Source: Candidatus Hadarchaeales archaeon
GTDB taxonomy: Archaea > Hadarchaeota > Hadarchaeia > Hadarchaeales > Hadarchaeaceae
NCBI GenBank assembly: GCA_038851565.1
Contig: JAWCKV010000022.1
Location: 1-16,064 of the forward strand
Direction: 5' to 3'
DNA length: 16,064 bases
Every line of letters starts with the position of its first letter. Positions within the stretch are counted from its first letter, which is position 1. Shown here in pieces: positions 2,454-16,064 of the stretch. The notes beneath the pieces were generated by a model. It was not told the origin of the DNA. It searched no databases and saw only the letters and a program-made list of their open reading frames with translations. The translations under genes and the position numbers were made by a program.

Positions 2454-3911
2454 ATGTACCTGCTGCTGGGCTTCACAGACATCGCATACTCCGTCGGAAG
2501 GATGCTGAAGGAGAGGGGCATGGATGTTGTGGTCGTCCAGGAGGACCCAAAAAACAGCGAGCGGATAAAGCTCATGGGATTCAGAACCGTGCTGGGGGAT
2601 CCGTCATCGGTTGCCACGCTTGAGGAGGCATCTTTCAGAGACGCCGAGGCCGTCATGGTGGCTGAGGGGAACCGTGCGAGGAGGGAAGCCATATTGAGGT
2701 CGGTTGACGCTCTCAAGAGGAGAATGGAAAATGAACAATTCATCATAGTCCTGACCACAGATGAATCAGAGGTTCGGGAATGCCTGAGACTTGGCGCTAA
2801 TGAGGCTGTGAGCATGACAGAGGTGACCGCGGAGCAGCTCGTGGGGCGGATGGAGAGGGCAAGGCAGGTGGTCAATGAGAAAAAACTGCGCAAGATCCTC
2901 AAGACGCGGATGAGGGAAAATCCCGGTGAGATGGCCATCGTCATTCAGACCAACCCTGACCCGGACGGCATAGCAAGCGCCGCAGCGCTCAAGCTCTACG
3001 CAAAATCGTTCGGGGTGGATTCAAGAATAGTATACGACGGAGTAATAGGACACCTCCAGAACAGGGCGCTTGTGAACCTGCTCGGGCTGGAGCTGCTGGA
3101 GGCCGAAAACGTGGACTTTAACAGGTTTTCCACGTTCGCCCTTGTGGACGTGGCAAGCAAAAGCCACTGCTGTCTTCCCAGGGACATAATCCCAACCATA
3201 GTGATAGACCACCACGCCGTTCCCGCGGGCGACATCGGGGCGGTACACGAGGACATAACTCCGGTCGGAGCGGCATCCACCCTCATGACGAACTACCTGA
3301 GGAGCGCGGGGATAGAGATAGACAGGGCAACCGCGGCCGCCCTGATGCTGGGGATACTGACGGATACAATGAACCTGAGCAGGGGAACGACCCCCCAGGA
3401 CTTCGAGGCCCTGATGTACCTCCAGAGGATAGCGGATCCGGAGATCCTGAGAAAGCTGATCGAGCCACCGATCTCCTCTGAGACGCTCGACGCCATCGCA
3501 AAGGGTATCAAGGCAGGGAAGCTGAAGGGCAACTGCCTGACGTCCTACATAGGCGTTGTTTTAAACAGGGACATCATCGCACAGGTGGCAGACTTCCTCC
3601 TGAACAGGGAGGGCGTGACCACCTCCTTCGTTTACGGAATATGCGGGGAGAACATCTACGCATCGGCGAGAACGAAGGACCCTGCCCTGAACCTGGGGCA
3701 GATCCTCAGGACGGCGTTCGGAGAAAAGTACGCCGGCGGGCATCCGCACATGGCCGGCGCCACTCTGCCGGCGAGGCTCCTCAGGGTGGGCCAGTCCACC
3801 ACCGGAAGCAGGATGCACTCCCTGATAGCAAAGCGTTTCCTCGAGACCATTGGGGTGATAAAGCCCTCCAGAAGGGGCAGGCGTTCCGGTGCTCTTCCAT
3901 GGGGTGCCTAG
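2454..3911 (+). CDS. TrkA-N/RCK domain fused to a DHH/DHHA1 phosphoesterase
   Basis: N-terminal Rossmann-like segment (VVVVQED...VLGDPS...LEEA) followed by DHH motifs NPDPD, VD, IDHH, GILTDT, SAR and AGGH..AG. Confidence 0.88.
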   Translation: MYLLLGFTDIAYSVGRMLKERGMDVVVVQEDPKNSERIKLMGFRTVLGDPSSVATLEEASFRDAEAVMVAEGNRARREAILRSVDALKRRMENEQFIIVLTTDESEVRECLRLGANEAVSMTEVTAEQLVGRMERARQVVNEKKLRKILKTRMRENPGEMAIVIQTNPDPDGIASAAALKLYAKSFGVDSRIVYDGVIGHLQNRALVNLLGLELLEAENVDFNRFSTFALVDVASKSHCCLPRDIIPTIVIDHHAVPAGDIGAVHEDITPVGAASTLMTNYLRSAGIEIDRATAAALMLGILTDTMNLSRGTTPQDFEALMYLQRIADPEILRKLIEPPISSETLDAIAKGIKAGKLKGNCLTSYIGVVLNRDIIAQVADFLLNREGVTTSFVYGICGENIYASARTKDPALNLGQILRTAFGEKYAGGHPHMAGATLPARLLRVGQSTTGSRMHSLIAKRFLETIGVIKPSRRGRRSGALPWGA

Positions 3912-4723
3912 CCGAGGCGCTCCGGAACGTTCTATCGGACAGGGAGCTGAGCCTTCTTCCTGGCGGCTTCGACCGCATAGGTCACGTGGCAGTGATCTCC
4001 CTTGCGGGGGAACTGCTCCCAAGGTCCCAGGAGATCGCTGGAGCCCTTCTTAGGATGGGCGGAATAAGGACCGTCATGCTGCGGGAGAGGGGCGTATCGG
4101 GGAGAACCAGGTCTCCGGGGCTAAAATTTCTGGCGGGCGATCCAAACACGGAGACCCTGCACAGGGAAAACGGATGCCTGTTCAAGCTCGACGTGGGGAA
4201 GGTGATGTTCTCCACGGGAAACCAGCACGAGAGGGCTAGGATCGCGAAACTCGTCCAGAGGGGGGAGGTTGTCCTCGACATGTTTGCAGGCGTGGGGCAG
4301 TTCACAATACCAATAGCGAGGCTCTCCGAGGCTGCCGTGGTTTACTCTACTGAGATAAACCCGGTCGCATTTCACTACCTGTGCGAAAACGTGCGCATGA
4401 ACAGGGTGGGGCACAGGGTGAGGCCGATCCTGGGGGACTGCGCGCGCGAGGCGCCGAAGGGAATGGCAGACAGGGTGGTCATGGGAATACTTCACGTTTC
4501 ACAGGCATATATCAGGCACGCGATCGAGGCGCTTAAGCCCGCGGGCGGGATAATTCACTACCATGAGAGCGTGCCCTCCAGAATCAGGTTTGAGAGGCCG
4601 GTGAGGAACCTGATGAGCGCGGCGGGAGGACGTGAGATAGAAATACTGGGAAGGAGGGTGGTGAAGAGGTACGCGCCCGGGGTCGATCACGTTGTTATAG
4701 ATGTAAGGGTTGGAAGGAGGTGA
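3899..4723 (+). CDS. taw2: tRNA(Phe) wyosine aminocarboxypropyltransferase Taw2 (Trm5/TYW2 family)
   Basis: Motifs RIGHV, HRENGC.FKLDV.KVMFS.GN..ER, DMFAGVG.F, DRVVMG (rather than the Trm5 NLP motif), IIHYH and KRYAPGV.HVV.D. The likely start is ATG 3899; the track's upstream 86 aa overlap the DHH gene. Confidence 0.8.
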   Translation: MGCLAEALRNVLSDRELSLLPGGFDRIGHVAVISLAGELLPRSQEIAGALLRMGGIRTVMLRERGVSGRTRSPGLKFLAGDPNTETLHRENGCLFKLDVGKVMFSTGNQHERARIAKLVQRGEVVLDMFAGVGQFTIPIARLSEAAVVYSTEINPVAFHYLCENVRMNRVGHRVRPILGDCAREAPKGMADRVVMGILHVSQAYIRHAIEALKPAGGIIHYHESVPSRIRFERPVRNLMSAAGGREIEILGRRVVKRYAPGVDHVVIDVRVGRR

Positions 4724-10619: not shown

Positions 10620-10686
10620 CGTTATTGTGTATTAAGTTTTTTTGAGGGGACAAAGCTATTTTTCACCGGAGAAGATAGCCTTTTGG

Positions 10687-10759
10687 GCCGCCGTAGCTCA
10701 GCCGGTAGAGCGATCGCCTCGTAAGCGATAGGTCGTGGGTTCAATCCCCACCGGCGGCT
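10687..10759 (+). tRNA. tRNA-Thr(CGT)
   Basis: Acceptor stem GCCGCCG/CGGCGGC, D arm GCTC/GAGC, anticodon arm ATCGC-CTCGTAA-GCGAT, T arm GTGGG-TTCAATC-CCCAC, discriminator T. No encoded CCA. Confidence 0.97.
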
Positions 10760-10788
10760 TCACAGCCTGTGCCTCATTCGGAAACCAA

Positions 10789-11385
10789 TCAATACGTCCA
10801 GACTGGAATCTCCTTCCATCTAGCTCCGTGTGCCTCCAAGGTCCTTGTAATCGCTGATGCCATCTCCCGTGGCACCATCAGCACAGCTTTCCCTATTTTT
10901 AAAACACCGGGACGCACAGCAACTCCATCGTACCTGTGAAGGTAGCGCTTCTTACCCCGCTGGGTTGTTGAGGTCCTGCCATACAGCGCGTGGTTTAACC
11001 TGTTTCTGGCATTCACGTCGAGCCCTTCTGTGTTGTAGGCGATTATCACCATCGGGTTAAGCCTCAGTTTGTGGACCTGCAACACCACTGGTTTGCCTGA
11101 AAGCATGAGCCCCTCCCCGCTCAGCGCCCCAGCCAGAGAAACATTTTTTTCAAGCTCCTTAGAGGTGACATGCACGATGTGGACGCGTGGGGGGGCAAGT
11201 TCTTCTACCTGCTTCATAGTTGCTTCATCTTTCCTTGAATAAATCACGGCAATGTCAATGTCGCTTTCTACCGTGGCCTCGCCCCGAGCAGCGCTGCCAA
11301 AGAGCGCTGCCGCCAAAACACAGGGAAGTTTGCCTACCCTTTCGCCGAATTCGAATAGCTCCCTCAGCCGAGCACCCGCATGCAC
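10789..11385 (-). CDS. Minimal nucleotidyltransferase (MNT) antitoxin with an extra C-terminal domain
   Basis: LFGSAARGEATVESDID is an exact GSX10DXD motif. The gene overlaps the 3' end of the upstream HEPN-like gene. Confidence 0.88.
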   Translation of the reverse strand: MHAGARLRELFEFGERVGKLPCVLAAALFGSAARGEATVESDIDIAVIYSRKDEATMKQVEELAPPRVHIVHVTSKELEKNVSLAGALSGEGLMLSGKPVVLQVHKLRLNPMVIIAYNTEGLDVNARNRLNHALYGRTSTTQRGKKRYLHRYDGVAVRPGVLKIGKAVLMVPREMASAITRTLEAHGARWKEIPVWTY

Positions 11386-11726
11386 GCCTCCCGCACCTCC
11401 CTGAGCATCTCCAATGCCCGCTTGGCTACTCCCCCATCGCTGCCCCTTCCGTAAACGTGCCTCGGCCTGAGCTGTTCCAGCGCATTAATGGCTTCAGCAA
11501 TCTTAAGCTCACCAACCCGGCGCCGCTCGATCTCGCCCGCCAGCCTGTTGTGCTTGATGTCCCTGTCAGCGGGAGTTATCCTGAGCTTGTGCAACGCGGC
11601 ATTCACGTAGTGAGCGGAGATCAGCACGCAGAGTTCGACAATGGCCTCGTAGTCGGCGCTTTGATCCAGCTTACTGAGAGTTCCCTCCATGGCCCGTAAT
11701 TTTTGTAAATGGTCCTCTATTTTCAT
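11364..11726 (-). CDS. HEPN-like toxin of a HEPN-MNT toxin-antitoxin pair
   Basis: 120-aa predicted helical protein with SAH..NA.L, KH and LEQLRPRHVYG, coupled to an MNT gene. Confidence 0.7.
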   Translation of the reverse strand: MKIEDHLQKLRAMEGTLSKLDQSADYEAIVELCVLISAHYVNAALHKLRITPADRDIKHNRLAGEIERRRVGELKIAEAINALEQLRPRHVYGRGSDGGVAKRALEMLREVREACMRVLG

Positions 11727-11763
11727 GTTTTCATATTAATATACTAAAAAGAGAGATTTAAAC

Positions 11764-11788
11764 GTTTTGTTATATAGATATACAAAAC
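11764..11788. promoter_or_regulatory. Palindromic operator candidate next to the TA promoter TATA box
   Basis: GTTTTGT-T-ATAT-AG-ATAT-ACAAAAC is an inverted repeat with one bulge. It abuts TTTAAA (about 11757-11762), some 31-36 nt upstream of the HEPN ATG. Confidence 0.45.
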
Positions 11789-11854
11789 AGGATTTCTGCT
11801 TACAGGGATACAAAAAGCTGCGAAAACAATTTTTACAAATTTTATGAATTTGCA

Positions 11855-11881
11855 TCGTGGGTTCAATCCCTACCGGCGGCT
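11855..11881 (+). repeat. Direct repeat of the tRNA-Thr 3' end (att-like site)
   Basis: TCGTGGGTTCAATCCCTACCGGCGGCT matches 10733-10759 (TCGTGGGTTCAATCCCCACCGGCGGCT) at 26/27 positions and is followed by CCA. Confidence 0.92.
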
Positions 11882-11980
11882 CCACGCGAAAATCGATGCG
11901 ATCCATGTAATGTCAACCAGTTTAAGACCATAGTAAGAATAGTTAGAAATAAATGACAAGCTAAGTATATCATCATATGG

Positions 11981-12964
11981 ATGTATCTAATCGTGGACGA
12001 TTGGAAAACATTCGTTGGTAAAAAAGAGAACCGTTTTGAGTTACTTCAAGGAGAAAAAAGGCAAGAATTTTGCTCGGACGATCTGAGCCAGATAATAATT
12101 GTGGCGGCATCTTCAATATCAATTGGAGCGATTCGCCTAGCATTAGAAAAAGGGATAGACATCGTTTTTATAAGTCGTTTTGGATATCCCGTTGGTCGCA
12201 TATACCCTTGCAAACTTGGCGGAACAACGCTGACTCGCAAAAAACAGCTCGAAGCTTACTTTTCTTGGAAGGGTTTAGAGCTGGCTAAAAAATTTGTTTA
12301 TGGCAAAATAAAGAATCAAGTCGCTGTTTTGAAAAATTTGCAAAAAACGAGAAGCAACGTTGATTTCACCAAATATATAGAAAAAATGGAGGAGAGAGAA
12401 CTCCAAATCGATATGATTGATGGGAGTTTAGACGAAGTCCGCGAAAAACTATTAGGTGTGGAAGGTAATGCAGCCAGCGAATACTTTCAAGCGCTTGCGG
12501 AGATATTGCCGTTTGAAAAACGAGATCGAACTAGCGCTGACCCATTTAACATAATGCTTAACTATGCATACGGAATCATTTATTCAGAAGTCGAAAGGGC
12601 ATGCGTTTTGGCAGGTCTCGACCCATATTTTGGGTATCTACATACAGACCGTTATGGTAAACCCTCCATGGTCTTGGATTTGATCGAAGAATTCCGTGCG
12701 CCCCTATCAGATAAACCCGTAATAACTCTTTTTGCTAGAAAACAAGTACGGGATAAGGACTTTGATAAAAGTGGCGAAAGTGTTCTGCTAAGTGAAACGG
12801 GACGAAGAAAAGTGATTGAGGCCGTGATTGAAAAGTTACACGATACAGCAAAAAACAGGGGTACTGAAAAAAGAATATGTAATATAATAGTTGAACAGGC
12901 ACGTGCGATAGCCCGATTTATTTTGAGTGAATCGGAGAAATATGAGCCTTGGAGTTATGTTTGA
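11981..12964 (+). CDS. cas1: CRISPR-associated integrase Cas1
   Basis: Motifs K..NQ, LLGVEGNAA..YF, D.FN.MLNYAYG, GLDPY.GYLH and S...DLIEEFR...D. The catalytic E/H/E residues are present. Confidence 0.97.
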   Translation: MYLIVDDWKTFVGKKENRFELLQGEKRQEFCSDDLSQIIIVAASSISIGAIRLALEKGIDIVFISRFGYPVGRIYPCKLGGTTLTRKKQLEAYFSWKGLELAKKFVYGKIKNQVAVLKNLQKTRSNVDFTKYIEKMEERELQIDMIDGSLDEVREKLLGVEGNAASEYFQALAEILPFEKRDRTSADPFNIMLNYAYGIIYSEVERACVLAGLDPYFGYLHTDRYGKPSMVLDLIEEFRAPLSDKPVITLFARKQVRDKDFDKSGESVLLSETGRRKVIEAVIEKLHDTAKNRGTEKRICNIIVEQARAIARFILSESEKYEPWSYV

Positions 12965-13264
12965 ATGATTTGGTGGGTTATCTACGATATCGCTGGCAAT
13001 AAAACAAGAAGCCGGGCGGCGTCCGCATGCATGAACTATGGGCTAAAAAGAGTCCAAAAAAGCGCATTTCTGGGTGAGCTTACAAAAAATCGTGCTGAAA
13101 TGCTGGCACTCGAAATTAAAGAAATCATATCTCCAAACGATTGCGTGTTTCTTATTCCATGCTGTTCCAACTGTTTTAAAGATAAGATCATTTATGGCGA
13201 GTTTGATGAAGAAGCTGTAAAGAAAAAGGATTGGTATATTGTAACTGGCGACAATGAAGGATGA
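12965..13264 (+). CDS. cas2: CRISPR-associated protein Cas2
   Basis: VIYDI....R......C..YGL.RVQKSAF.G and a CxxC motif near the C-terminus. Starts immediately after the cas1 stop. Confidence 0.96.
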   Translation: MIWWVIYDIAGNKTRSRAASACMNYGLKRVQKSAFLGELTKNRAEMLALEIKEIISPNDCVFLIPCCSNCFKDKIIYGEFDEEAVKKKDWYIVTGDNEG

Positions 13265-13835
13265 ACAAACCTTATCTGCAAAGGATATAATGAACTTCTG
13301 CTATTGCCCCAGAATTATTTATTATGAGCATGTCCTCAAGATCAGGCAAGCTACAACTAAAAAGGAGCTTATAGGTCGCGAAAAGTACGAAGAATTCAAA
13401 AAGAAATCGAGACGAGGCAAGATAATAAAAGAGTTTCCAAAACTAAAAAAACTTTATGATGTTTATTTATACTCAAATAAAATGAACATTGGGACTCGTG
13501 TTGATTGCGTTGCTATTAATGAGGTAAAAAAAGAAGCGTATCCAATCCAAATAAAGTATTCAAGCAGGCCATCAAAAATATACAAAACGCAAAAGTTACA
13601 ACTGCTTCTTGAAGCTAAACTCATAGAGGAGATAATGGGCTACAGCACGCCTCTAGGTTTTATTAAATTTCTAAAAACTGATGATTTAGTTCCCGTTAAT
13701 GTAAAAAACAGATCGGAACTTGATACAGCAATCTGCGATATAAAAAAGTTCATCCATACGGAAGTGTTTCCCGATCCCACCAGATATAAAAGAAGGTGTG
13801 TCGACTGTTGTTATAGAAAAAGGTGCTGGTTATGA
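13254..13835 (+). CDS. cas4: CRISPR-associated protein Cas4 with a variant nuclease motif
   Basis: Fe-S ligands YCPR..YY and C..C.Y...C, plus RecB-like RVD...PIQIK. Located between cas2 and the effector. Confidence 0.92.
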   Translation: MKDEQTLSAKDIMNFCYCPRIIYYEHVLKIRQATTKKELIGREKYEEFKKKSRRGKIIKEFPKLKKLYDVYLYSNKMNIGTRVDCVAINEVKKEAYPIQIKYSSRPSKIYKTQKLQLLLEAKLIEEIMGYSTPLGFIKFLKTDDLVPVNVKNRSELDTAICDIKKFIHTEVFPDPTRYKRRCVDCCYRKRCWL

Positions 13836-15469
13836 CAAATGAAGGAGTTATAACTAGTGTAAAGTTCAAATTGTATTTTGACAACGAAAACGATAGAAGA
13901 GAGATGGACGAGTTCTTTGATGAATATGCTAAAGCAGTTACCTTTGCAGCAAGGATTATTGACAAATTGCGCAAAAAGTTCAAGCCTTTGGGCAGGTATG
14001 TTGACAAAAGATGGGTCCCAGAGATAGGCGTTTGCAGTAAGTGCAATAAGAATGGTGAGCTTTATCGCGTTAACACTTACAATGGGGAAAAATTGTGTAA
14101 ATCTTGTTACAATCAAGACTTCAGTGACACCGCAATCCGCAAAAGAATCGTGCCTGTGGTTCGTGGCAAAAGGAAGGGTGAAAAAGTTGATGGTAGCCTT
14201 AATCTTCGTAATGTCACAACAAAAATTTCTCAGACACATATGCACTATGCCGTTAGGGACGCCCTTCAAATTCTTGACGCTTTAAAAAAGCAACGAAAAC
14301 AAAGATTAAAGAGGCATATACGTGACAAAAAAAGACTAAAAATGTTCGAAGAAATGCTTTCAGATCCTCTTAAAAGAGTTGAAGTTCCGCAAAGGAAAGG
14401 ACAAAGGGTGGTGAGGTATGTACACAAGTCTCAGGAAGATAGAGTTAACGAACTTCCAGGATACTCGCTGGCCAAAATAAAAAATAAAATTGTTATTCTG
14501 AAAAGAAATCTATATCGCGATAAAAAATCTCTGTTTAAAATGAACCCAATTTATTTCAAGGGAACGAGAGTTACTCTGACCCCGACAATTAAATTCGACG
14601 TTTCGAATAATCGAGTCCGTATTACCCTATTGCGTGCGAGATGGTACGGATTCAGCGGAAGTAACGTTGCAAGTGAGCGCGGCAGGAAATATTTTTCAGA
14701 AAAATTGCAAAAAATATTGGCTTTGAAGCCAAGATACGCTTATCTCATTAGAAAACAGATAGCAGAGGTCAATGGAATGCCAATTTATGAGTATTATCTG
14801 CAGTACGCTGTTGAGGAGTTCCCCAAGCCCATTTTGGAGTATACAGGAGTTTTAGGAATAGACTGGGGAATCAAAAAATTGGCCGCTCTAGTTTTTTTTG
14901 AGAAAAATGATCCAAATAAGCCAAAATTTGTGAAGTTTTTCAAGGCAGATGAGATAATAAAAACAAAGATATCTTGGAGAAAACAGCGATACGCTCTTAC
15001 AGGGTTGCATCACAGAATAGAAAAAATGAAGAGAATGCGTCCGATAAAACCCAAGATTGATTATATATTACATAACATTTCAAAAGAAATTGTTAATATG
15101 GCAAAACAAAAGAATGCTGCAATTGCAATTGAAAAACTTGAAAAAATAAAAAAAAGTAAACCTCGACAAAGATCGAGAGAAAAATACTTCTTATCACTTG
15201 GAGATTATGCAAAATTGGCGCAGTTTATTTCTTACAAGGCAAAAAAAGAGGGTATTGCTGTGATTGAAATTTCACCGGAGTACACAAGCCGGGTTTGTAG
15301 TCACTGTGGTTCGATTAATACTGAACGTCCTTACAAAAAACCGAATGCTTTAAGACCGTCTTGGTCTCTTTTTAAATGCAACGACTGTGGGGTAGAGCTA
15401 AATTCAGATTACAACGCCGCTTGTAATATAGCTAAAAAGGGTTTGGATGAGCTTACTCGTAGCCTTTAA
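13832..15469 (+). CDS. cas12f: Type V-F miniature effector Cas12f2 (Cas14b-like), 545 aa
   Basis: RuvC-I LGIDWG, RuvC-II IAIEKL, YTS..CSHCG...FKCNDCG Zn finger and RuvC-III NSDYNAA.NIA. The N-terminal SVK.K...F.EYAKA.TF, the CSKC/CKSC Zn finger and Y.YLIRK...YEYYLQY match my recollection of Micrarchaeal Cas12f2. ATGA overlap with the cas4 stop; adjacent to cas1/2/4 and the array. Confidence 0.9.
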   Translation: MTNEGVITSVKFKLYFDNENDRREMDEFFDEYAKAVTFAARIIDKLRKKFKPLGRYVDKRWVPEIGVCSKCNKNGELYRVNTYNGEKLCKSCYNQDFSDTAIRKRIVPVVRGKRKGEKVDGSLNLRNVTTKISQTHMHYAVRDALQILDALKKQRKQRLKRHIRDKKRLKMFEEMLSDPLKRVEVPQRKGQRVVRYVHKSQEDRVNELPGYSLAKIKNKIVILKRNLYRDKKSLFKMNPIYFKGTRVTLTPTIKFDVSNNRVRITLLRARWYGFSGSNVASERGRKYFSEKLQKILALKPRYAYLIRKQIAEVNGMPIYEYYLQYAVEEFPKPILEYTGVLGIDWGIKKLAALVFFEKNDPNKPKFVKFFKADEIIKTKISWRKQRYALTGLHHRIEKMKRMRPIKPKIDYILHNISKEIVNMAKQKNAAIAIEKLEKIKKSKPRQRSREKYFLSLGDYAKLAQFISYKAKKEGIAVIEISPEYTSRVCSHCGSINTERPYKKPNALRPSWSLFKCNDCGVELNSDYNAACNIAKKGLDELTRSL

Positions 15470-15472
15470 ATA
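15465..15472 (+). promoter_or_regulatory. TATA box candidate for the tracrRNA
   Basis: TTTAAATA fits the archaeal TATA consensus. It overlaps the cas12f stop and lies about 25 nt before the first stem at 15495. Confidence 0.5.
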
Positions 15473-15494
15473 TAATCAGCAGCATAGAATTAAC

Positions 15495-15793
15495 TGTCAT
15501 GTCTCGTGGGATCCCATTCGCTAAATGAATGGGATTGACGTGGCAACATGTCGCGAGCTACAGTGGTAATGTTCCACACTCGCATGCTACAATAACATGC
15601 GAGGGCGAGCGAAGGATTAAAAGGGCGGCGTTGCACCGCAAAAGGGTTGTAAAACCCTCGATGGCCCGAAAACCACGGTAAGGTATGTCACCAATAGCGG
15701 ATAAATCCGCCCAAGGTGATTTAGCGTGGTGCGAGCCACGCATACCGACGGGCCAATCCGAAGTTCGGTTCATATGGTTCTGCATATGTTTTT
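15495..15793 (+). ncRNA. tracrRNA candidate of the type V-F system
   Basis: Anti-repeat GTTCG-GTTCA-tatg-GTTCTGCA (15763-15784) is complementary to the repeat 5' part. Loop GTTGCA (15630-15635) in a GCGG/CCGC hairpin is complementary to the repeat 3' end TGCAAC. Many stems are present and it ends in a T5 run. Boundaries are inferred. Confidence 0.8.
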
Positions 15794-15876
15794 AAACTCA
15801 TATACGAAAAAATGACAGTCCAAAACTTGATGTAATAAATGATCCCCTTTGGAGATTTGGTTCACTTTACGGCGGT
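15794..15876 (+). promoter_or_regulatory. CRISPR leader candidate
   Basis: AT-rich non-coding stretch between the tracrRNA T-run and the first repeat. Confidence 0.5.
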
Positions 15877-16064
15877 CTTGCAGAACTTGAACTAACGAAC
15901 GTAGGAATGCAACTAATAAAAAGGAGGAATTATTAGTTGACACTTTGGTAAACTTGCAGAACTTGAACTAACGAACGTAGGAATGCAACGTTCTTACCTT
16001 CTCAAGCCTCTGGATGTCCTCAATCTTGCAGAACTTGAACTAACGAACGTAGGAATGCAACTTG
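15877..16064 (+). CRISPR. CRISPR array with 37-nt repeat CTTGCAGAACTTGAACTAACGAACGTAGGAATGCAAC (likely continues beyond the window)
   Basis: Three identical repeats at 15877-15913, 15953-15989 and 16025-16061. Spacers are 39 nt (15914-15952) and 35 nt (15990-16024). Confidence 0.98.

Follow-up and report, generated by a model that had tools for sequence, protein, structure and literature searches.

Our results show that the distal end of the window, the 16,064-nt stretch of archaeal DNA analysed here, contains a predicted tracrRNA gene belonging to a type V-F2 (Cas12f2/Cas14b) CRISPR-cas locus. The gene would run on the + strand from 15495 to about 15784-15793 and give an RNA of about 290-300 nt, a reading that we hold with a probability of roughly 85%. 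A five-module fold, composed of stem 1, a stem 2 junction, a hairpin with a GUUGCA loop, a branched stem-4 domain and a 3' anti-repeat, lies between the effector gene and the array in 16 of 16 related loci. The anti-repeat follows the repeat of each locus, and with the location of the gene added the tracrRNA interpretation becomes very likely. All of the structural elements that a sequence-only reading had listed for 15495-15793 on the + strand were recovered at their places; its judgement that the RNA is unusual fared less well, as discussed below.

The end of the window is a CRISPR-cas locus in which cas1 (11981-12964), cas2 (12965-13264) and cas4 (13254-13835), identified by their Pfam domains, lie upstream of the effector gene cas12f2 (13823-15469, + strand, 548 aa). 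A gap of 407 nt separates cas12f2 from the array, whose first 37-nt repeat occupies 15877-15913 (+ strand); further copies are found at 15953-15989 and 16025-16061 on the same strand, and the contig terminates within the array. The predicted tracrRNA region begins 26 nt past the cas12f2 stop and is separated from the first repeat by 84-93 nt. By its profile scores the effector is a Cas12f2/Cas14b protein, reaching 690 bits against the NCBIfam model NF049972 CRISPR_Cas12f2 (cut-off 450) and 446 bits against the PADLOC Cas14b model. Its sequence aligns with the solved Cas12f1 chains over the C-terminal half only (E 7e-11), and its AlphaFold model (pLDDT 81.4) matches the whole AsCas12f, OsCas12f and Un1Cas12f1 chains in Foldseek; no structure among the matches listed for this model carries Cas12f2 in its title.

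The base composition of the locus sets it apart from its genome, an assembly of 823 kb in 50 contigs that is 86.7% complete. The GC content of the CRISPR-cas locus (11701-16064) is 38.4% as compared with 56.5% for the genome (sd 2.7, 751 segments of 2 kb), and the three segments of lowest GC in the whole assembly all fall within it. The closest relative, L001, whose effector is 68% identical, has a single repeat (3540-3576) and no array; its contig goes on for 600 nt, and the GC content jumps likewise to 58-62% directly after this sole repeat. The low GC of the locus and the same jump in L001 argue for a recently acquired island more than for a mis-assembly. Upstream, the 3' end (10733-10763) of a tRNA-Thr(CGU) gene (10686-10761) is repeated 1.1 kb downstream at 11855-11885 (31 nt, 94% identity), like the attachment sites of an integrated element, and the CRISPR-cas locus begins just past this second copy. 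Between the two copies, 10789-11726 on the - strand holds a 198-aa ORF with an NTP_transf_2 nucleotidyltransferase domain and an overlapping 120-aa ORF without a Pfam match, a pair which we take to be possibly a toxin-antitoxin system of the MNT/HEPN type.

Protein and locus searches provided 15 further distinct loci with full-length effector homologues, 38-68% identical to that of the window and mostly from DPANN-type archaeal MAGs. The distance from the effector stop to the first repeat is 304-407 nt in these relatives, and the whole gap can be aligned. MAFFT followed by RNAalifold on the 16 intergenic regions predicted 35 pairs, 28 of them with compensatory changes. Since plain MAFFT mis-registers several helices (the outer helix of stem 1, hairpin c and the second-level helix of the branched domain), covariance models were built from reference-based alignments, R1 for the 5' half and R2 for the 3' half, and the loci were realigned. 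In the R1 alignment 91.7% of 456 cells are paired and 23 of 30 pairs have changed on both sides; in the R2 alignment the corresponding values are 85.7% of 308 cells and 16 of 22 pairs. None of 500 shuffles scored as high in either half, and slid controls gave 30-52% and 19-43% respectively. These pair counts come from alignments fitted to the structure being tested, and they overstate the number of independent events because the 16 loci are interrelated (L041 and L042 are near-identical, and L008 and L044 are close), so that what the pairing numbers of the two alignments show is a conserved fold and not a series of independent events. A covariance model from homologous loci was among the checks that the sequence-only reading had proposed, and the helices do covary.

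Within the window itself, RNAfold gives 15495-15793 on the + strand an energy of -120.5 kcal/mol (z -5.9), and none of 200 shuffled sequences was as stable. In the unconstrained minimum-energy structure part of 15546-15560 pairs with the 3' anti-repeat, which indicates that alternative folds exist. With 51-52%, the region is richer in GC than the locus at large (about 38%). We rejected the possibility that it is coding: there is no conserved reading frame, and the longest stop-free stretch goes down to 28 aa over both strands in L004.

The RNA family defined by the two models follows the Cas12f2-type effectors. The R1 search took 55 of the 117 sources collected and matched 19, namely the window, the 15 other loci and three duplicates, all on the + strand and directly downstream of a Cas12f2-type gene; the other 36 sources, TnpB- or Cas12f-like loci and one truncated relative, gave no R1 match. 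In the R2 search, which took 52 sources, the 16 matches were again all on the + strand directly downstream of Cas12f2-type genes. The window scores 90.7 bits with R1 and 91.7 bits with R2 over the full model, matches that follow by construction from its presence in the seed alignments. More informative is the lack of matches elsewhere: in the 823-kb genome this is the single match of the family, and none was found in the 65 other genomes of the phylum (56-95% complete; the sample of 66 genomes spans 0.6-2.2 Mb). Rfam returned no match at E values up to 10 for 15300-16064 on both strands.

Stem 1 (15495-15545, + strand), delimited by the fold and by the pairing counts of the family, consists of an outer 9-bp stem around a hairpin of 10-11 bp. 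As the sequence-only reading had described, the outer helix (15495-15503/15537-15545) contains two G.U pairs, T15497.G15543 and T15500.G15540, and encloses two perfect 9-nt arms (15511-15519/15527-15535), which lengthen to 11 bp in the fold. Across the family the inner helix is paired in 96.3% of cells, with both sides changed in 10 of 10 pairs, and the outer helices in 79-88%.

Stem 2 (15551-15612, + strand), drawn from the fold and the covariance-model alignment, is a three-way junction; neither this junction nor the insertion that it carries was on the earlier list of elements. An outer helix (15551-15554/15609-15612) is followed by a purine-purine internal loop (GA/GA) and by the pairs 15557-15559/15604-15606, and two hairpins are inserted at 15563-15577 and 15579-15603. 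The stem 2 helix (helix 4) is paired in 91.3% of cells and five of its seven pairs are compensatory. The inserted hairpins are limited to six of the 16 loci, where the insertion measures 41-43 nt, and RNAalifold on these six loci alone predicted 17 pairs, 11 of them compensatory; the second hairpin cannot be aligned across the family and was scored for its presence locus by locus. Ten relatives have a short UAUAY loop in place of the inserts. The internal loop (15555-15556 and 15607-15608), which lies beside a GC helix of 2-3 bp, is made of conserved purine dinucleotides, GA/GA or, in relatives, AA/AA. In the Un1Cas12f1 complex two purines of stem 2 are described as inserting into the inactive RuvC pocket (PMC8053092), and it is a speculation that the purine loop might do likewise here.

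Stem 2 is followed by the putative pseudoknot hairpin GCGG-CGUUGCA-CCGC (15625-15639, + strand), whose stem (15625-15628/15636-15639) closes a 7-nt loop. All 16 loci form this stem, and one compensatory change turns a G-C pair into U-A. Next to it, the small accessory hairpin AGGGTT/AACCCT (15643-15658, + strand; arms 15643-15648/15653-15658) was found as predicted, and the family alignment places it in 10 of the 16 loci, six having none; it is paired in 83.7% of cells and five of five pairs are compensatory.

The largest module is the multibranch domain (15662-15755, + strand), located at the position of stem 4 in Un1Cas12f1 and supported by covariation. Its closing stem (15662-15668/15749-15755) is paired in 81.3% of cells across the family and its second-level helix (15682-15686/15742-15746) in 80.4%, while hairpin c (15724-15741), with a GCGA loop, reaches 94.8% and keeps a closing U.G pair in 15 of 16 loci. 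Hairpin b (15687-15720) is variable, being missing or shortened in three loci; it is too variable for the family alignment and its presence was scored per locus. The closing stem and the inner pairings TCACC/GGTGA, GCGGA/TCCGC and GCGTGG(T)/(G)CCACGC proposed from the sequence are all there. For the remaining one, GGTATG/CATACC, a competing pairing CGGTA/TACCG exists in the window sequence, and it is the proposed register that the family keeps.

Our results point to two contacts between this RNA and the CRISPR repeat. The bases 15630-15635 of the hairpin loop complement nt 32-37 of the repeat (UGCAAC) over 6 bp with -7.8 kcal/mol, in agreement with the loop pairing put forward in the sequence-only reading, and neither the loop GTTGCA nor the repeat end TGCAAC varies among the 16 loci. 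The second contact is a gapped anti-repeat, which turned out wider than had been claimed and occupies 15757-15784 on the + strand: its four segments 15757-15759, 15763-15767, 15768-15772 and 15776-15784 complement repeat nt 28-30, 20-24, 12-16 and 3-11 respectively, forming 22 bp within repeat nt 3-30. The duplex has an energy of -27.1 kcal/mol, a value reached by none of 1000 shuffles of the anti-repeat, and the anti-repeat is the top + strand partner of the repeat within the whole window. Together, loop and anti-repeat would engage 28 of the 37 bases of the repeat.

The anti-repeat also varies with the cognate repeat. In four loci, for example, the tracrRNA segments TTAATCCC, TCAATCCC, TTAACTCC and TTTACTCG stand opposite the repeats GGGATTAA, GGGATTGA, GGAGTTAA and CGAGTAAA, respectively. 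Judged by duplex energy, and in a test that is weak for close pairs of loci because their repeats are related, the cognate repeat ranks first in nine of the 16 loci and is surpassed by at most two non-cognate repeats in 15; with the same reservation, no non-cognate repeat beats the cognate one by the longest exact complement in 12 of 16. In one relative, L044, the repeat (4253-4289) matches that of Un1Cas12f1 (Cas14a1), as printed in the supplement of Karvelis 2020, at 36 of 37 positions when compared by eye, and its effector is of the Cas12f2 type, with 45% identity to the Cas12f2 of the window. Repeats may be shared between the Cas12f1 and Cas12f2 branches.

Two TATA-like boxes bracket the predicted gene. 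The first, TTTAAATATAAT (15465-15476, + strand), lies over the cas12f2 stop codon and starts 30 nt before the first pair of stem 1. In 15 of the 16 loci an A/T run starts 27-34 nt ahead of the stem 1 base; in 14 of these 15 the box sits within the final effector codons (K-G-L-K; the last ~45 nt of cas12f2). In the window the K-G-L-K codons differ and the new box overlaps the stop codon at an unchanged spacing from stem 1. That the box has been relocated with its spacing kept argues for selection on this spacing, and places the predicted start of the RNA near 15495; TTTAAATATAAT is the predicted promoter of the tracrRNA. A scan for promoters and terminators of the bacterial type, with bacterial models on an archaeal locus, yielded nothing useful.

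At the other end, the pairing with the repeat stops at 15784 and a run of five T follows at 15789-15793. The sequence-only reading was correct in noting this run after the anti-repeat, but the run belongs to a conserved TATA-like box, TTTTTAAA (15789-15796, + strand), which marks a possible 3' end of the tracrRNA and the predicted TATA box of the array leader. It is not kept as a T-run, and most loci have TTT alone inside the box, which reads CTTTATAAA in most of them. Subtracting positions places this second box 87-89 nt ahead of the first repeat in every one of the 16 loci. The box is probably the promoter of the leader and might in addition terminate the tracrRNA. In 11 of the 16 loci it is followed, after 12-20 nt, by a motif (A)TGCA(A/G)AAA that looks like the end of the repeat. 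The motif is degenerate in the window, for which reason we gave up here the idea that it imitates the repeat end and binds the GUUGCA loop. In this stretch (15789-15830 in the window) box and motif are bracketed by a covarying inverted repeat, paired in 71.9% of cells as compared with 29-45% for slid controls, with three of eight pairs formed in the window; this element could be promoter architecture, a 3' hairpin of the tracrRNA or a fossil repeat.

Is this RNA unusual? Measured between stem 1 and the second TATA-like box, the element is 204-301 nt long in the 16 loci and 293-301 nt in six of them (the window, L001, L007, L008, L044 and L045). The RNA had been called unusually long, which it is when compared with the 140-160 nt of Un1Cas12f1 but not among the Cas12f2 loci. 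The sequence-only reading had itself named a size and fold shared by all Cas12f2 tracrRNAs as the finding that would make this RNA real but not unusual, and this is largely what we see, the fold being present in 16 of 16 loci at sizes of 204-301 nt. Being common to all 16 loci, the large fold characterises the family and does not single out this genome. The long subgroup is marked out by the two-hairpin insertion in stem 2.

The same comparison bears on the branched domain, which had been interpreted as an expansion that may stabilise the complex or be dispensable in an sgRNA. The idea of a local expansion does not survive: in 13 of the 16 loci, the window included, the domain is 96-110 nt long, and in the other three 63-82 nt. 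On this evidence it is an elaboration shared by the family, placed where Un1 has stem 4. As to dispensability, covariation of its closing stem, second-level helix and hairpin c makes it unlikely that the whole domain can be spared, but the suggestion retains some force for its middle hairpin (15687-15720), which is variable or absent in relatives. If parts of the RNA can be spared, the best candidates are the accessory hairpin at 15643-15658, hairpin b and the stem 2 inserts.

The main alternative that we have considered is that the functional tracrRNA is much shorter, about 15620-15785, and runs from the pseudoknot hairpin through the branched domain to the anti-repeat, with stems 1 and 2 either trimmed away or forming the untranslated 3' end of the cas12f2 mRNA. 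Co-transcription of this kind would fit the four loci in which the effector reading frame runs into the 5' arm of stem 1. Un1Cas12f1, moreover, remains active when its stem 1 is removed, and cleavage persists with an sgRNA shortened from 222 to 90 nt (PMC8053092); the dispensability of stem 1 there means that conservation may overstate the importance of the 5' modules here. However, covariation is as strong in stems 1 and 2 as elsewhere in the RNA, both stems are contiguous with its core in 16 of 16 loci, and the upstream TATA-like box holds its distance from stem 1 in 15 of 16, even in the window, where the box has moved and the C-terminus of the protein is different. We therefore consider the short form unlikely, and retain the full-length tracrRNA as our reading.

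Two further explanations concern the nature and the strand of the element. The region abuts a leader of conserved length (the 87-89 nt noted above), as might be expected if it acted at the DNA level or in cis, through leader or adaptation signals or as a regulatory 3' UTR, with no role as a guide scaffold in trans. Against this, the compensatory changes and the excess of G.U over A.C indicate selection on a + strand RNA, the complementarity to the repeat follows the cognate repeat, and Cas12f effectors are reported to require a tracrRNA (PMC8053092, PMC7229846), so that a cis-acting element seems highly improbable. To a structured RNA from the - strand, which would be an antisense RNA with a repeat-like 5' part, we give hardly any credence. 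This strand folds far better than its shuffles (z -5.1), so that folding energy alone cannot choose between the strands, and the second TATA-like box is nearly palindromic. The family, however, has 90 G.U against 23 A.C wobble cells, in line with the orientation that had been deduced from the G-U pairs of the window; reading the alignments on the - strand lowers pairing to 83.6% in the 5' half (from 91.7%) and to 76.0% in the 3' half (from 85.7%), and an RNA from that strand would carry sequence in the sense of the repeat and be unable to pair with the crRNA.

We propose that transcription of the full-length tracrRNA would begin about 30 nt downstream of the TATA-like box that overlaps the cas12f2 stop, and that the RNA would grip the crRNA repeat twice, by the hairpin loop on nt 32-37 and by the 3' anti-repeat on nt 3-30, the pseudoknot between loop and repeat serving to position the guide. 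By analogy with Un1Cas12f1, the RNA may scaffold an asymmetric dimer of Cas12f2, with the branched domain placed where stem 4 of Un1 bridges the protomers. A bolder version, to which we give even odds, is that the Cas12f2 tracrRNAs would be the largest class yet seen (200-300 nt, five modules), the RNA of about 295 nt outweighing here a protomer of 548 aa; that the stem 2 junction and the stem-4 domain would take over the scaffold and dimer-bridging roles; that the promoter would be lodged in the final effector codons, with the 3' end abutting the promoter of the leader; and that the covariation map would be enough for direct sgRNA design.

The practical interest of such a map is that the Cas12f proteins are sought after as very small genome editors, whose performance is decided by the design of the guide RNA (Kim 2021, PMC8763643). 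For the Cas12f2 branch, the literature that we found treats the helper RNA as an unmapped "putative tracrRNA" region; in the Cas12f/Cas14 papers covered, mostly as abstracts and with the possibly relevant Harrington 2018 outside their scope, we found no description of the fold of a Cas12f2 tracrRNA. The module map separates fixed parts (the GUUGCA loop, the core of stem 2 including the purine loop, the proximal anti-repeat and, in the branched domain, hairpin c and the closing stem) from variable or optional ones (the stem 2 inserts, the hairpin at 15643-15658 and hairpin b), and both sgRNA design and structural studies of Cas12f2 can start from it. For the window itself the outcome is mostly a correct annotation and holds no surprise; the useful product is the map for the whole family.

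How does this RNA compare with those of known systems? A small RuvC nuclease combined with a large multi-domain RNA, resembling Cas12f2 and its tracrRNA, is also seen in IscB and TnpB; their omega/reRNAs carry the guide in cis and have neither a separate crRNA nor an anti-repeat. The nearest model is Un1Cas12f1 (Cas14a1; PDB 7C7L and 7L48), which, like the locus of the window, has its RNA gene between effector and array. Its tracrRNA, of 140 nt in Xiao 2021 (PMC8053092), has four stems, the loop of stem 3 pairing with the repeat, and its 34-nt stem 4 lies between the two protomers; the sgRNA printed in the supplement of Karvelis 2020 (PMC7229846) has about 160 nt, and this RNA is called oversized in Kim 2021 (PMC8763643). 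The order of the modules is shared (stems 1-2, a repeat-pairing hairpin, a stem and a gapped 3' anti-repeat; PMC8053092) and, as in the Un1Cas12f1-type fold, a hairpin loop complements the 3' end of the repeat, and the 3' end of the RNA its upstream part. The parallel drawn in the sequence-only reading, the same logic at about half the length, is therefore sound, with 140 or about 160 nt in Un1Cas12f1 against about 295 nt, roughly twice as long, in the window. In contrast to Un1Cas12f1, stem 2 of the window RNA is a three-way junction, an extra small hairpin follows the pseudoknot hairpin, and a branched domain of 94 nt stands where Un1 has its 34-nt hairpin. A comparison by eye shows similar sequence in the pseudoknot hairpin and the repeat only, and the Un1Cas12f1 repeat given in the supplement of Karvelis 2020 ends in the same ...GGAAUGCAAC as that of the window.

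Closer in effector family are the Mi1, Mi2 and AuCas12f2 (Cas14b) loci of Karvelis 2020, in which a putative tracrRNA is likewise placed between the nuclease gene and the repeats (PMC7229846). These loci cut DNA with the whole stretch from gene to repeat included, and in the portions of that paper available to us the ends and the fold of the RNA are not mapped (PMC7229846). On the protein side, the closest solved folds among the matches listed are those of the AsCas12f and OsCas12f sgRNA complexes (PDB 8J12, 7WJU and 9NZQ), with Foldseek E values of 1e-15 to 1e-12 and target-normalised TM scores of 0.55-0.64. Both are dimers of Cas12f on one guide RNA, and they share 14-17% sequence identity with the effector of the window.
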